Assembly (NCBI GenBank): GCA_003649205.1
Contig: QMRC01000015.1
Coordinates: 1 to 43,584, forward strand
DNA: 43,584 nt
Source of the DNA: Thermoprotei archaeon
GTDB lineage: Archaea > Thermoproteota > Thermoprotei > Thermoproteales > B15-G16
Direction of reading: 5' to 3'
Shown here in pieces: positions 39,548 through 43,584 of this stretch. Both the position numbers and the translations under genes were made by a program. Positions within the stretch are counted from its first letter, which is position 1. Each line of letters starts with the position of its first letter. The notes below the pieces were generated by a model. The model made no database searches. It saw only the letters and a program-made list of their open reading frames with translations, and had not been told where the DNA came from.

Positions 39548-40050
39548 GTGCCCACTCAAGATGTTGAGGAGAAGATAATTGAGCTCTATAGACGAGGATA
39601 CTCACAGAGAGCAATTGAGAAATTACTGGGAATCAGTAGGAAGACCATTAGGAGAGTACTGTTAAGACACGGCGTAGAGATTCGAGTTCACTACAAGAAG
39701 CTAGATTGGAGTAAACGAGAAACCATAGCATACCTCCTCGGAGTACTTCTCGGAGATGGATATGTGAGAGAAGGAAGATAGAGCTAGAGGAAGCTACAGA
39801 GTTAGGAATCACAGTACGTAACAAAACGCTAGCTGACAAGTTTAAGCAAGCATTGGAAATCACCAGGTTAAAACCATACCTCAACTTATTACTATGCTAG
39901 GCAGGAGTATGCTCACGAGAACTTAGAAATCTCTTCCTTGAATTCAGAGAGAACTCATAGAAAATTCTCAAGTGATCACCTACGTTAATGAGAAGGGATA
40001 CACACTTGGCCAAAGAGCCCACGCACTACTTTCTCAAAGGAATGCAAAGG
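39548..40050 (+). pseudogene. Decayed HTH + LAGLIDADG endonuclease
   Basis: HTH (IIELYRRGYSQRAIEKLLGISRKTIRR), motif 1 AYLLGVLLGDGYV, frameshift near 39770 into ITVRNKTLADKFKQAL, in-frame stops, remnant second motif HYFLKG near 40030. Confidence 0.7.
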
Positions 40051-40181
40051 ATTAGGCATAGCGACTGACCTAAGACCTCGAGAGTGGTAACTTTCTAACA
40101 CATAAAGTCTTGAGCTTTCTTCCAAGAACAGGACGTAAGGTACTTAATTAAACCTTACACATTAAGCGAACACATTAAGTA

Positions 40182-41315
40182 ATGTATGCTATGTATAGGC
40201 TTACGCCTAGGCATGTAAAGACAATGTTAAGTACCTTTTGTTGTCGGTTATGGGATTACGCACGTACCCACATCATGATATTGTCTATTGCTGTTTTACT
40301 GCTGCTTAGTCATTACTTAGTGCCTGATATTTATGTCTGGACAGCTCTATACATTCAAGTATATCTCGTGCTTGTGATGATTTTCATCGTTGTGATACTA
40401 CTTCATGCTATATATAGAGCATACCCCTACGAGCTTTGGCATGGAAAGTTGTTCCAGGTATTTTGTATTCCGCAAGTATTCTCACGTATGAAGCTCAGCT
40501 ACTTCGTGCTCACGTACATATTTGCCTCTGCATTGCTATTAATAGCACTTACTGGGAGACTAGAGCTAGGTCAGAAGGCAGTACTTGCTCAGATACCGTT
40601 CTCAGGTCTCTTGTTCACACTCCAAGAATGGTTCAAGTGGATAGGTTCAACAGGTGAAATCATCGTGACCAGTGCCAGGGATAAGGTCGTGAACGAAGAA
40701 GGTAAGATAGTTGTTGAAGCTGTTACAAGAGGTAATGTGTTGAAGAGAGCTAGAGCATCTATTCGAATGGAGGTCATTGACCATAATGGTAAAGCTCAAG
40801 AGCATCTCAACGATTTCCTCGTAGTAGGAGACTGTGATACATGTAAGCTTAAGAGAGAAAGAGAAGGAGCATGTGAGGAGTTCTCACTATGTGCTAAACG
40901 TGTTGTTGGTGAGTACGTCCCATGGTCTACACCTGAATACCCCATTACAAGATATATTCATAGGCATAAGGCTGAGGTTGGGTTTCCCTGGGTGTATACC
41001 GACTACTGTCACATAACCGATATTACACCTGGTGTTACAGCAAAGATCCTAATTGGGTACATAGATCGCAAGCATAGAGTACTGAAGATCTATAGTGAAT
41101 ATGGTGCACCGGGCCCCAAGTACGATCCATGCTGTAGACCATTAAGAACGTGCATAGACCTTAGGAAACTCTACAGCAAAAAAGCAAAGCTTAAGCTTAT
41201 CTTAACAATATCTGCAGAGAATGCTAAGTACCCTGTGAAAGTGGTACTTGAGGTAGAGCCACAGCAGGAAGGCAGTAATGCATACGTAAAGATAGTTGAC
41301 GTTGTACCTGCGTGA
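40182..41315 (+). CDS. Hypothetical polytopic membrane protein with a Cys-containing C-terminal beta-rich domain
   Basis: About 4 hydrophobic segments followed by a soluble domain with CDTC, C....C, CC....C. Confidence 0.7.
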   Translation: MYAMYRLTPRHVKTMLSTFCCRLWDYARTHIMILSIAVLLLLSHYLVPDIYVWTALYIQVYLVLVMIFIVVILLHAIYRAYPYELWHGKLFQVFCIPQVFSRMKLSYFVLTYIFASALLLIALTGRLELGQKAVLAQIPFSGLLFTLQEWFKWIGSTGEIIVTSARDKVVNEEGKIVVEAVTRGNVLKRARASIRMEVIDHNGKAQEHLNDFLVVGDCDTCKLKREREGACEEFSLCAKRVVGEYVPWSTPEYPITRYIHRHKAEVGFPWVYTDYCHITDITPGVTAKILIGYIDRKHRVLKIYSEYGAPGPKYDPCCRPLRTCIDLRKLYSKKAKLKLILTISAENAKYPVKVVLEVEPQQEGSNAYVKIVDVVPA

Positions 41316-41690
41316 AGAGTAGTATCTCACCTCCATGCCAATAGTAGCTCAAGCCCTTTACAATGAGAGCTTACTCTAGCCACTATGCGGGGTATGTCGA
41401 TCTTGAAGTTTATGTCTCAGCATGTACCCCATTACTCAGGATGTAAGAAGACCTGGGAATACAGATCGTAGTTTTTCTCTTTACAAGGATGCAGCATACT
41501 CATGGCTTGGAAACATGACACATTAAGCATGAGGTTAGGTACGGCTTTAGCTTAGAACCCTTTGCCTTCGTTCAATAGAGTATAGCCGCATGCCATGAAT
41601 ACTCTCCCCTTCACTTCTGGTACCTACTCTAGGTACCACTATTTGGATAACAGATACCTAGAGTGGGTACCTAGTATACCTCGATCGTGA

Positions 41691-41738
41691 GGTGTACCAA
41701 ATGGTGTACCATGTGGTGTACCATACGGTGCACCATAC
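41691..41738. repeat. Four tandem 12-bp repeats GGTGYACCANNN
   Basis: GGTGTACCAAAT GGTGTACCATGT GGTGTACCATAC GGTGCACCATAC. Confidence 0.9.
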
Positions 41739-41779
41739 ATTGCTAAAGACTTATCTTTGAGTACAACATCACCTACTAC

Positions 41780-42117
41780 AGATGATCCCCAGTACCCTTT
41801 AGGGTACTGGGGTGATTCCCTGAGCGTAAGGCGATGAGGGGGAACTTCACCTACCCTAGGGATCTTGAGCGTAACGCAATGAGAGGATGAACTAGGGTAG
41901 GTGAAGGAGAGGGGGTGGGGGACAAGGGACTTCACAGAAACAAACATTGAAAGAACGTGCTAGTAAATCCAGAACACCAACATAGAAACAAACATCGAAA
42001 GGAGTAATGACCTTTAACTCCTGATGACAGACCCTATCCGCTCCCCCCAACCTTACCCAGTAAGGAGCTGGTAAGGTGGGAAGGGGGGCGGATAGGGGAT
42101 GAAAGAGGGGTCTTTTT
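41780..42117 (+). ncRNA. Unclassified K-turn-rich structured RNA
   Basis: Perfect stems 41787-98/41801-12 (12 bp), 41845-59/41892-906 (15 bp), 42032-41/42088-97 (10 bp, extended imperfectly), each bordered by NAUGA/(U)GA K-turn-type motifs on the + strand; ends at a T5 run. Confidence 0.65.
41936..42001 (+). repeat. Two 18-nt direct repeats AGAAACAAACATYGAAAG, 48-nt period
   Basis: 41936-41953 and 41984-42001 with one mismatch; partial copy ACAGAAACAAA at 43350-43360. Confidence 0.7.
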
Positions 42118-43289
42118 GGATCCTCGAGTTTAGGGTGGGGTCTCCAGAATTTAAGGCTTTTCTAAAGTTCATAAAGGACCTCGATACGTTAGCTCTAGAA
42201 GAAGCTAAGAGGATCGATCTTCTCGATAGATTAAAACCAAGACAGCAACGTGAAGTACCTAGTCTAAAGGTTAGAATTGTAACTAATCAAGAGAAGACAC
42301 CACACTATAGATTCGGCCTCTTCCTTGGTGATGGGAAGAGAGCAGTATCGACAAGTTACGAAGCTAAGTATACGGTTTCACGACTTGGAAAGAAAATTGT
42401 CGTACTCTCATCATATCCACAACACGAAGTTAGATTTGGGATCTATAGAAAACTTAGTGGTGGATACACTGTACACTACAACATCACATCAATGATACTT
42501 AATGATAAAGGTGAGAGAAAGATACTACCTGAAGTCACTTGGTATCGAGATCTCAGAGCATCTCTCAAACATTATATCAACTACGTAATTGAATTGTTTA
42601 GACGAAGTAGTGGGGAAATACATGGAGTTCTCCAAGATCTAATACACATAGTAAGGCCAATAGTGAAGACAATATTTGAGTCAGATGATAACATGTATCA
42701 ATTCCTTGCAGGGCTACTTGACTCTGACGGTACAGTAATGAAATCACAGGTAATGCTCTGTATACCAGTAGACAGCGTTGAAGGAATAATCCTTGCACTA
42801 ATACTAGAAGTACTAGGTATACCATACAGTACAGGAGAAAAATCCGGAGAAACATACTTCATACTTCCACTAAGTTCAACAACTATAGTGCAACTGCTTA
42901 GAAAAACCATGAACTACATAGTGAACCCCATAAATAAGAGCAGACTTGAGAAGGAACTTCAAAGACAACATAGAGCACTGAAAATCCTAAACTTACAGGA
43001 CTTCTACAACTTCCTCATGAACGTAAAATTAGACAGCAGAGGAAAACTCGTCTACTACTGTGCCAAAAACACTCTTAAACGACAACTATTGGAAAGCCTA
43101 CTTAAACTACACGAAATCAAAGCAGATACCTCAGACGTCAAAAAGGTCAGAATAAGCTATAAAAGAAATCCACAAAACCTAGAGAAACTCGAGAAGTTGT
43201 ATCAAGACCTAGGACTAGAGATACCAGAAGCAATAAAGAAAGCAAAACAAACACTAACACAAAACAAAACGCTAAGAAATTCCAACTAA
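42099..43289 (+). CDS. Free-standing two-motif LAGLIDADG homing-endonuclease-like protein
   Basis: Motif 1 YRFGLFLGDGK and motif 2 QFLAGLLDSDGTV, both acidic residues intact; no intein splice motifs seen. Confidence 0.82.
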   Translation: MKEGSFWILEFRVGSPEFKAFLKFIKDLDTLALEEAKRIDLLDRLKPRQQREVPSLKVRIVTNQEKTPHYRFGLFLGDGKRAVSTSYEAKYTVSRLGKKIVVLSSYPQHEVRFGIYRKLSGGYTVHYNITSMILNDKGERKILPEVTWYRDLRASLKHYINYVIELFRRSSGEIHGVLQDLIHIVRPIVKTIFESDDNMYQFLAGLLDSDGTVMKSQVMLCIPVDSVEGIILALILEVLGIPYSTGEKSGETYFILPLSSTTIVQLLRKTMNYIVNPINKSRLEKELQRQHRALKILNLQDFYNFLMNVKLDSRGKLVYYCAKNTLKRQLLESLLKLHEIKADTSDVKKVRISYKRNPQNLEKLEKLYQDLGLEIPEAIKKAKQTLTQNKTLRNSN

Positions 43290-43292
43290 ATC

Positions 43293-43319
43293 TCCCCCAC
43301 CCCCAACTTTTCCCTCTCC
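43293..43319. repeat. 3' arm of a long-range inverted repeat enclosing the LAGLIDADG ORF
   Basis: TCCCCCACCCCC (43293-304) is the exact reverse complement of GGGGGTGGGGGA (41911-22); TCTCC (43315-19) can pair with GGAGA (41906-10). Confidence 0.7.
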
Positions 43320-43425
43320 AACCTCAAGCAAGGAGACTCATAAACAAAGACAGAAACAAAGTAAGCATTACTAAACAATCAATAGACAAAGGTAAATGAA
43401 ATGCACAAGTCCGGTAAGATAAATT

Positions 43426-43584
43426 TTACGAAGTCCGTGCTGTTCCGCGCTTGCGACCTGTTCTTCGCGGAGCTATATGCCCCACTTTGGCTCCTGGGGG
43501 TGCTGTGCGTGGTACTGATGTTGATCCGCCGGGGCGTTTTCTTCTTCCTGTTCCGTGTGGGTGTGCGTAGGCGCCCATTGCTAC
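43426..43584 (-). CDS. rpl2: 50S ribosomal protein L2 (uL2), 3' end only
   Basis: Minus-strand translation [52 protein letters not shown] matches the uL2 C-terminus; not in the ORF track. Confidence 0.9.

Follow-up and report, generated by a model that had tools for sequence, protein, structure and literature searches.

A portable, covarying K-turn RNA leader ahead of a double-LAGLIDADG gene in a Thermoprotei archaeon

We analyzed a stretch of 43,584 bases from an uncultured hot-spring Thermoprotei archaeon (contig QMRC01000015.1 of assembly GCA_003649205.1), referred to below as the window, near the right end of which a gene for a double-LAGLIDADG protein stands behind a structured RNA leader. 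The window is a whole contig (C15) of an archaeal genome bin (G000, here the own genome; 2.07 Mb in 31 contigs, 93.8% complete, 43% G+C). For comparison we used a congeneric genome (G001), a metagenome contig with a unit of the same kind (L017) and contigs assembled from a DNA sequencing run (X2). An earlier reading made from the letters alone, the sequence-only reading, had listed repeats, a promoter, hairpins, complementary arms and an open reading frame (ORF) at this place, and all of its features were found where it put them or a few bases away.

The unit lies on the forward strand and opens with four tandem 12-bp repeats, GGTGTACCAnnn, at 41691..41737 (Tandem Repeats Finder: period 12, 3.9 copies, 85% matches). 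These stand upstream of the promoter, for which an A/T-rich TATA-like box was read from the sequence at 41744..41759. The K-turn module of the leader follows at 41772..41924 and scores 157.2 bits on R1, a covariance model of the leader whose training set was the own genome and L017 only. Its first hairpin, P1 (41787-41812), is flanked by GAUGAU and UGA; the second, P2 (41818-41842), reads CCCUGA-GC-GUAAG-GC-GAU-GA-GGGGG; and P3 (41848-41903) has a 12-bp stem around two further GA/GA motifs. Next comes a G-rich arm, GGGGGTGGGGGA (G-arm, 41911..41922), the 5′ strand of a closing helix. Between this arm and the gene are a minimal CRISPR array at 41937..42001 and a long G+C-rich hairpin of roughly 30 bp, P5 (42032..42098), predicted at both 37 °C and 70 °C. 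The sequence-only reading was right about this hairpin except for its position over the start codon: its last base directly precedes the ATG at 42099, which it abuts and does not cover. An equivalent hairpin of different sequence abuts the ATG in the units of contigs C6, C9 and L017. According to the ORF list, the double-LAGLIDADG ORF is intact and runs from 42099 to 43289 (42099..43289, stop included), encoding 396 amino acids (aa). Three nucleotides (nt) past its stop lies the C-arm, TCCCCCACCCCC (43293-43304), which together with a second pyrimidine segment, CCCTCTCC (43312-43319), forms the 3′ strand of the closing helix (43293..43319).

No host gene or exons were found at the unit. It is flanked by an ORF of 377 aa (40182-41315) and, on the other strand, by the gene for ribosomal protein uL2, whose C-terminal tail (43426..43584, reverse strand) is convergent with the unit and forms the G+C-rich contig end. 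The tail shares 91% nucleotide identity with G001:C67, and the uL2 ORF of G001 matches Ribosomal_L2_C at E = 1.5e-42. We therefore rejected the idea that positions 43426-43584 are an rRNA leader. The high X2 depth over the uL2 tail reflects conservation, not rRNA. The whole window gave no Rfam match at the gathering score and contains no tRNA gene, which agrees with the earlier statement that no rRNA, tRNA or extein flanks the unit. A permissive Rfam search (E ≤ 10) of 41500-43584 returned only microRNA-type hairpin noise (best E = 0.03) and U3 with 16 bits, below its threshold of 34. The own genome holds no assembled 16S or 23S rRNA, so its own 16S-23S spacer is not available for comparison. 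The 377-aa ORF carries hydrophobic helices at its N terminus, matches no Pfam family and is without a paralogue in the genome; it sits within the genome-specific segment described below.

The leader is far more stable than expected by chance: its 341 nt fold at -143.5 kcal/mol, compared to -100.1 ± 4.4 kcal/mol in shuffles (z = -9.84), and none of 100 shuffles was as good. We followed the stems through two alignments, both of which were fitted to the model, a bias toward structure. In alignment A5, with 7 distinct rows, 24 of 35 pairs are changed on both sides and 91.9% of cells are paired, against 68.3% in shuffled alignments; none of 500 shuffles was as high, and sliding the 3′ partners lowered the paired cells to 42-60%. 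In alignment A8, whose 17 rows come from several families and include two short reverse-strand matches to the palindromic P1, 28 of 32 pairs are changed on both sides and 91.4% of cells are paired, against 61.0% when shuffled (none of 500 as high; 40-52% after sliding). The stem sequences are wholly unlike between copies, as in P3, which is CACCUACCCUAG/CUAGGGUAGGUG in C15, CUACUCUCAG/CUGAGAGUAG in C9 and CCGCCCGCUC/GAGCGGGC in the copy at the start of C16 (C16-start). About 20 of the 221 cells in A5 are G-U pairs, and the conserved motifs (RUGA 5′ of P1, GKGA 3′ of P1 and CUGA...GAUGA at the P2 stem) are sensible on the plus-strand RNA only. The G-U pairs and the strand-specific GA/GA motifs favor a plus-strand RNA over a DNA signal. 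The RNA structure of the leader is therefore real and kept through compensatory change. The sequence-only reading had called for a search for conserved stems around homologous ORFs, and these were present with the covariation just given. It had also named RNase P and pre-rRNA spacers as known RNAs that might turn up in Rfam; nothing in Rfam matched, and the leader forms a new RNA family with strong covariation that Rfam lacks.

P2 has the layout of a K-turn hairpin: a non-canonical stem with GA, a canonical stem of 2-3 bp, a loop, a GAU bulge, GA and the return of the non-canonical stem. By eye, and judged against the K-turn consensus, it contains the canonical stem, the 3-nt bulge, the tandem sheared G.A/A.G pairs and the non-canonical stem. 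Most copies retain the GAUGA and GA elements, with variants in C6, in genome G088 and in the second copy of genome G078. In Sulfolobus, L7Ae represses translation via a K-turn with a GAU bulge in a 5′ untranslated region (5′-UTR), as outlined in PMC5539422, and the GAU bulge of P2 is the same as the one outlined there. Based on these motifs, the portable leader probably binds L7Ae. A box C/D or H/ACA guide RNA was ruled out by eye: the stems covary rather than carry guides, the 12-nt spacing from C to D′ is missing, and neither a pseudouridylation pocket nor an ACA box is present. Pattern searches were of limited use. A generic K-turn-hairpin expression run over the genome was unspecific (1664 matches against 957 in shuffled sequence), and a two-K-turn DNA pattern was found in one metagenome contig and in none of the genome contig collection.

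The module is not confined to LAGLIDADG genes. In the own genome, C8 and C26 carry a simpler form (P1, K-turn hairpin and a plain P3) upstream of other genes. The C8 cargo is a 662-aa DEAD-box helicase (Pfam DEAD, E = 1e-27) in a region without a G001 counterpart, and that of C26 is an unknown ORF on an ORFan-rich contig of 4.4 kb. We searched 120 genomes of the class's other families with R1 and with a second leader model, R2, and found matches in 7 (E ≤ 0.01) and 11 (E ≤ 0.001) of them, respectively. The gene downstream is an HTH-LAGLIDADG gene in G078:C28 (LAGLIDADG_3, E = 4e-9), TnpB in G089 (TNB domain, E = 1.6e-14), TnpB again in two of the three near-identical copies of G080 (OrfB_IS605 and TNB), and a HerA-like ATPase, below the Pfam threshold, at G088:C13:3314; the matches in G078:C13, G088:C13:82 and G090 run past contig ends. 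The K-turn module is thus portable and also heads other mobile-element genes. A phylum-wide sample of 151 genomes gave nothing at E ≤ 1e-4 besides a weak match in G021, and the leader had no match in the virus and phage collections. Weak model matches in G014, G026, G105, G018, G021 and G023 were unconvincing and are not counted as members.

Two R2 matches, both weak, fall in the 16S-23S spacer, in G115 (L054, E = 7e-8) and in G108 (L063, E = 6e-7). They are limited to 2 of the 23 genomes of one other family, none was found at E ≤ 1e-4 in two additional genomes from the genus of G115, and the G115 match has no K-turn hairpin. The spacers of G115 and G108 show a hairpin between UG(C)A...GUGA followed by a CUGA...UGUGA hairpin, an arrangement that resembles the module. 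We regard these matches as a lead, not a refutation.

BLAST and R1 give nine matches to the leader in the own genome, those on C15, C8 and C26 included. The units on C6 and C9 carry paralogous LAGLIDADG ORFs with 31% and 27% identity to the window ORF, and the paralogues on C6, C9 and C2 together span 24-31%. The copies at the end of C16 and at the start of C13 overlap the end of C9 by 112-123 identical bases, which makes them upstream joins of the C9 unit that are either alternatives or duplicates. The C16-start copy extends past its contig end. Several copies lie at contig ends, as expected if repeats broke the assembly. The copy on C1 (G000:C1:330123-331000) is decayed, with its ATG changed to ATA and its frame broken. 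Relative to the C9 copy, the interior of its pre-ATG hairpin is inverted, which suggests recombination between the hairpin arms. In total, the pairing of RNA and nuclease gene recurs in four ORF-bearing units in or near the own genome, in one decayed unit and in one independent LAGLIDADG unit of another family. This comparative evidence backs the earlier picture of a self-contained unit in which a promoter of its own, a structured non-coding RNA and a LAGLIDADG gene come together and a host gene is lacking. C16 itself is 36 kb long, has a low G+C content of 39.9% and is bordered on either side by a K-turn unit that faces outward; possibly this contig is an integrated plasmid or virus.

Units are absent from the matching G001 sites at all three loci that could be tested. 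The 1.8-kb segment C6:87318-89118, which holds the C6 unit, is missing from G001, where its flanks stand 20 nt apart at an intergenic site, and C1:327729-331009 is missing as well. In the window, the genome-specific segment spans 39803..43444; in a DNA search against G001 its place is taken by 794 nt of other sequence. Those 794 nt are the rest of an HTH-LAGLIDADG-zinc-finger gene (G001:C67; Pfam LAGLIDADG_3, E = 2e-18), which is intact in G001 and of which the window keeps a truncated 5′ end of 77 aa (39548..39781, forward strand; HTH Pfam matches). The truncated ORF ends ...LLGVLLGDGYVRE just past its first LAGLIDADG motif, and the sequence runs on in G001. At the fourth locus, C9, the G001 contig stops at the boundary. 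In both cases where this could be tested (window and C6), the diverged flank is the one on the 3′ side of the unit: the uL2 tail ends in GTARTS in one genome and in GVTKQ in the other, and the right flank of C6 is 88% identical, compared to 97% on the left. A C9-like unit on G001:C29 is convergent with the gene for ribosomal protein eS6, as the window unit is with uL2. Moreover, the leaders of L017 and C9 are identical at 341 of 350 positions (97.4%), whereas their ORFs share 31% amino-acid identity. The leader and the ORF are exchanged independently.

The 396-aa protein contains the motifs FGLFLGDGK and FLAGLLDSDGTV (cores LFLGDGK and LAGLLDSDG). D78/G79 and D210/G211 are invariant in the six paralogues aligned, and both catalytic aspartates are therefore kept. 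An AlphaFold model (mean predicted local distance difference test score, pLDDT, of 79.8) gave Foldseek matches to WhiA at the top and to I-WcaI, the PI-SceI and Tli intein endonucleases, I-SceI, I-Tsp061I and I-DmoI, with probabilities of 0.77-1.00 and low template modeling (TM) scores of 0.15-0.47. From the model and these matches, the protein is predicted to have the pseudo-dimeric alpha-beta-beta-alpha-beta-beta-alpha fold, to which extra N- and C-terminal domains are added. A profile search of the PDB found PI-SceI at E = 0.011. The family is present in only 2 of 41 related genomes, namely the own genome and G001. A word-indexed search of 5.8 billion proteins returned only the query itself, and an exhaustive profile search of 1.84 billion representatives returned 6 proteins at E ≤ 1e-30 and 61 at E ≤ 1e-3. 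The ORF belongs to a lineage-restricted double-LAGLIDADG family.

The two A-rich 18-mers that the sequence-only reading had seen in the leader are present, and their identity can be refined: they are copies of GAAACAAACATTGAAAG, the 17-nt CRISPR repeat of the own genome, which occurs 73 times on C4 and 64 times on C11. The first leader repeat (41937-41953) matches the array repeat at 17 of 17 positions and the second (41985-42001), with one mismatch, at 16 of 17; between them lies a spacer of 31 nt (41954-41984). In the host arrays (G000:C4:116628-121111 and G000:C11:39676-43540) the spacers measure 40-51 nt and the bases before the repeat are not conserved. A length of 17 nt is unusually short for a CRISPR repeat. 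The C11 array adjoins genes of the Cmr2, RAMP, Cmr5 and CARF types, a type III-B set. Among the units only the window copy has the mini-array. A 485-nt contig of X2 has the same mini-array with one spacer difference; it covers 41910-42109 with this one difference, and the sequence on either side of that stretch is unlike the window. Searches for a target of the spacer came back empty in the own genome (allowing as many as 7 mismatches), in viral contigs (exact matches) and in the phage collection. Mini-arrays and solitary repeats are known on mobile elements, as outlined in PMC6858448 and PMC10651486. Solitary repeats, one exact and one degenerate, stand a few bases past a TATA box at C26:75-91 and C22:5249 on small, ORFan-rich contigs, the C26 repeat being upstream of the K-turn module, and these may be repeat-mimic RNAs of a mobile element. 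GAGAATTGAAAG in G078 was considered as a CRISPR repeat and set aside, as it occurs only once there.

The TATA box is clearer in the paralogous copies than in the window; by eye, paralogous and distant copies have TATA boxes 24-33 nt 5′ of the RUGA motif that opens the module. Arrays like the 12-bp repeats of the window also precede the units at C16-end and C13-start, and another lies at C11:3075. These repeats are probably an operator for a DNA-binding protein. Repeat arrays of the 12-bp GGTGTACC type were seen at four loci, C16:35219-35656 (reverse strand), C11:3075, C15:41691 and C16:35897. On C16, a divergent gene upstream encodes a small protein with a ribbon-helix-helix look (by eye), a candidate binder.

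The arms around the ORF are equally characteristic. Within the 2.07-Mb genome GGGGTGGGGG is restricted to three complete units, and in each of them CCCCCACCCC follows 1210-1382 nt downstream, 0-6 nt from the stop codon. We compared the longest stretch of perfect complementarity shared by leader and 3′ flank with that in 200 shuffles of the 3′ flank. In the window the exact 12-nt complement of the G-arm that the sequence-only reading had noticed past the stop codon (43293-43304) exceeds any in the shuffles, whose maximum was 10 nt. The corresponding lengths are 11 nt in C6 (shuffle maximum 11 nt), 12 nt in C9 (12 nt) and 17 nt for the C16-start leader against C11 (13 nt). The 17-nt site lies about 50 nt past a gene pair for a HerA-like ATPase and a DExH helicase, which means that the arm bracket is not specific to LAGLIDADG cargo; this complementarity suggests that the start of C16 joins C11 ahead of the ATPase and helicase pair. 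The arms of L017 and C9 differ on both sides in a compensatory manner, L017 having GGGAGGGGTGGGG with CCCCACCCCTCCC.

We propose that the unit is a free-standing cassette of the homing-endonuclease type, made of a LAGLIDADG gene from a lineage-restricted family and a portable K-turn leader, and we put the probability of this reading at roughly 0.55. Its own archaeal promoter would start a transcript with the three-hairpin K-turn module of roughly 150 nt, followed by the G-rich arm, the mini-array in the window copy only, the hairpin at the start codon, the ORF and the C-rich arm that would pair with the G-rich one. The protein would cut cassette-free alleles and the unit would spread by repair-driven copying (homing), with turnover and decay. 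L7Ae on the K-turns, the ATG hairpin and the closing helix could stabilize the RNA at high temperature, and the same elements could hold down translation of a potentially toxic nuclease. Cleavage by Cas6 at the two repeats might free one CRISPR RNA (crRNA) and split the K-turn RNA from the coding part.

Several observations weigh against this proposal. The protein stays below the Pfam thresholds (Hom_end 15.9 bits, E = 0.014, against 21.1; LAGLIDADG_3 14.2 against 22.5), and its top structural match, WhiA, is a DNA-binding protein, not a nuclease. Neither a target-site signature nor clean element ends were seen, and the inserted segments exceed the unit: 1.8 kb in C6 and 3.6 kb in the window, the latter including the unrelated 377-aa ORF. 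The comparison genome G001 is only 71% complete. The G078 unit has no closing helix of at least 8 nt, and in some copies (C6, C8, C26) a T-run follows the module, which may be a separate small RNA there. Finally, the C2 paralogue (G000:C2:247854-248780) is leaderless and keeps its synteny in G001:C14 with 97%-type conservation, beside genes for a tRNA and, as judged by eye, a thymidylate-kinase-like protein, with a 5′ frame difference in the G000 copy; leaderless and syntenic in both genomes, it looks domesticated.

The best placed of the alternatives, itself unlikely, takes the module as an independent gene for a new L7Ae-binding small RNA that sits upstream of various genes, the LAGLIDADG ORF being transcribed separately. 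The module does stand ahead of unrelated genes, the T-runs after it measure 4-5 T in C6, C8, C26 and the C16-start copy, and with the TATA box 24-33 nt upstream the RNA would begin at the first K-turn, like box C/D RNAs. On the other hand, the window has no run of more than three T from 41925 to the ATG and, by eye, no second TATA-like box 5′ of the ORF. Moreover, the G-arm, which belongs to the 3′ end of the module, pairs with a site past the stop codon, and the orientation of the module is constant, always directly 5′ of an ORF.

Somewhat more doubtful is a wider scheme, in which the K-turn module would be a ribonucleoprotein (RNP)-forming leader shared and exchanged by selfish elements of hyperthermophilic archaea (LAGLIDADG genes, TnpB insertion sequences, ATPases of plasmids or viruses). 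It would imitate the pre-rRNA spacer to recruit L7Ae and the rRNA-processing machinery, and so stabilize, process or circularize the RNAs of these elements or couple their expression to the making of ribosomes. Just as with introns, LAGLIDADG ORFs would enter and leave this RNA, and the whole would be a host-less, intron-like RNP platform.

Could the unit be derived from an intron, or act as a pre-rRNA mimic, with its arms as an rRNA-type processing stem that the splicing endonuclease cuts and with the excised RNA of the ORF circularized, in the manner of archaeal rRNA introns and circular pre-rRNAs? The closing helix surrounds the cargo in four units, its arms change in a compensatory way between C9 and L017, the ORF and the RNA around it change independently of each other, as in pairs of intron and ORF, and R2 matches the 16S-23S spacer of G115 and G108. 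Against this, a scan for 3-4-3 bulge-helix-bulge motifs between leader and 3′ flank in four units, in which relaxed forms were not searched exhaustively, found none in C15 when flanks of 4 bp were required, nor any that the units share in position. The matches in the other units lie at unrelated places and are little better than those in shuffles. The sequence-only reading had likewise seen no clean bulge-helix-bulge, and its suggestion of an orphaned or circularizing intron is not supported: the motif was found at no conserved place, no exons were found, and cargo other than LAGLIDADG genes stands behind the same leader, namely a DEAD-box helicase, TnpB and the HerA-like ATPase with its helicase, the last pair bracketed by the same arms too. 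The spacer matches, in turn, concern only 2 of 23 genomes, and the one in G115 lacks the K-turn hairpin. We consider this explanation improbable, and rank it after the wider scheme.

Quite improbable, and a step further down, is a domesticated factor, WhiA-like or maturase-like, that binds DNA or RNA and works with its own leader RNA rather than as a mobile nuclease. LAGLIDADG maturases that bind structured RNA are known, and the WhiA fold match, the extra terminal domains and the leaderless syntenic paralogue would suit such a role, but all six paralogues retain the catalytic aspartate in both motifs and the units show presence/absence, decay and ORF swapping. Least probable of all are DNA-level signals, in which hairpins and arms would be recombination or transposition sites (IS200/IS605-type hairpins, terminal inverted repeats): the TnpB elements with the module, including the three near-identical G080 copies, and the inverted hairpin interior of the decayed C1 copy, which points to arm recombination, speak for them, but the conserved G-U pairs and one-strand K-turn consensus motifs, the insertion boundaries away from arms and hairpins (the C6 segment runs from about 440 nt before the G-arm to about 150 nt past the C-arm) and the lack of a transposase in the LAGLIDADG units speak against them.

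The comparison with known systems places the cassette between several of them. The LAGLIDADG enzymes of archaeal rRNA introns (I-DmoI, I-Tsp061I) resemble it in the single-chain double-LAGLIDADG fold, in the broad group of hyperthermophilic archaea and in an ORF that paired RNA arms loop out and whose evolution is independent of the RNA. Unlike them, the unit has its own promoter and neither an rRNA host nor a bulge-helix-bulge, and its protein has roughly double the length, additional terminal domains and a sequence similarity below the Pfam thresholds. Archaeal pre-rRNA spacer stems, as seen in G108 and G115, share with the unit the UGA...UGA-flanked hairpin, the CUGA...UGUGA hairpin and the long-range helix around a cargo; the likeness is weak and sporadic (2 of 23 genomes of the family), and no bulge-helix-bulge was found.

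The free-standing homing endonuclease genes of phages (intronless homing) have their own promoters and lie in intergenic positions beside conserved genes; they are present or absent in close relatives, decay, are swapped so that one endonuclease gene replaces another, and can carry a hairpin at the translation start. The unit is like them in location, presence/absence, replacement and start hairpin. It differs in that it lies on an archaeal chromosome, encodes a LAGLIDADG and not a GIY-YIG or HNH protein, would cleave only by prediction, and adds the K-turn leader, the helix between its 5′ and 3′ ends and the CRISPR mini-array. In the literature outside of supplements, we found no description of free-standing LAGLIDADG homing genes with their own promoter on archaeal chromosomes and none of a K-turn-rich leader shared by mobile-element genes; supplements may list transcripts that bear K-turns. 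The leader links the biology of L7Ae and K-turns, selfish nucleases (LAGLIDADG, TnpB) and CRISPR mini-arrays, which are usually studied apart, and the swappable ORFs would be a natural collection of thermostable proteins of the meganuclease type that differ in specificity.

The mini-arrays of viruses and plasmids outlined in PMC6858448 and PMC10651486 have in common with that of the window a single spacer, two repeats of the host array and a mobile carrier. In our case the array lies inside the leader of an endonuclease gene, and its spacer has 31 nt compared to 40-51 nt in the host arrays and no target found in the collections searched. With the L7Ae operator in 5′-UTRs, as presented in outline in PMC5539422 and PMC6298567, the unit shares the K-turn with a GAU bulge, the tandem G.A pairs and the position in the 5′ leader of an archaeal mRNA. 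Here, by contrast, several K-turns are gathered in a 150-nt module about 175 nt upstream of the ATG, without overlap with a ribosome-binding site, and binding is predicted. If L7Ae does bind, a core protein of ribosomes and small nucleolar RNPs would serve mobile elements to control or protect their transcripts.

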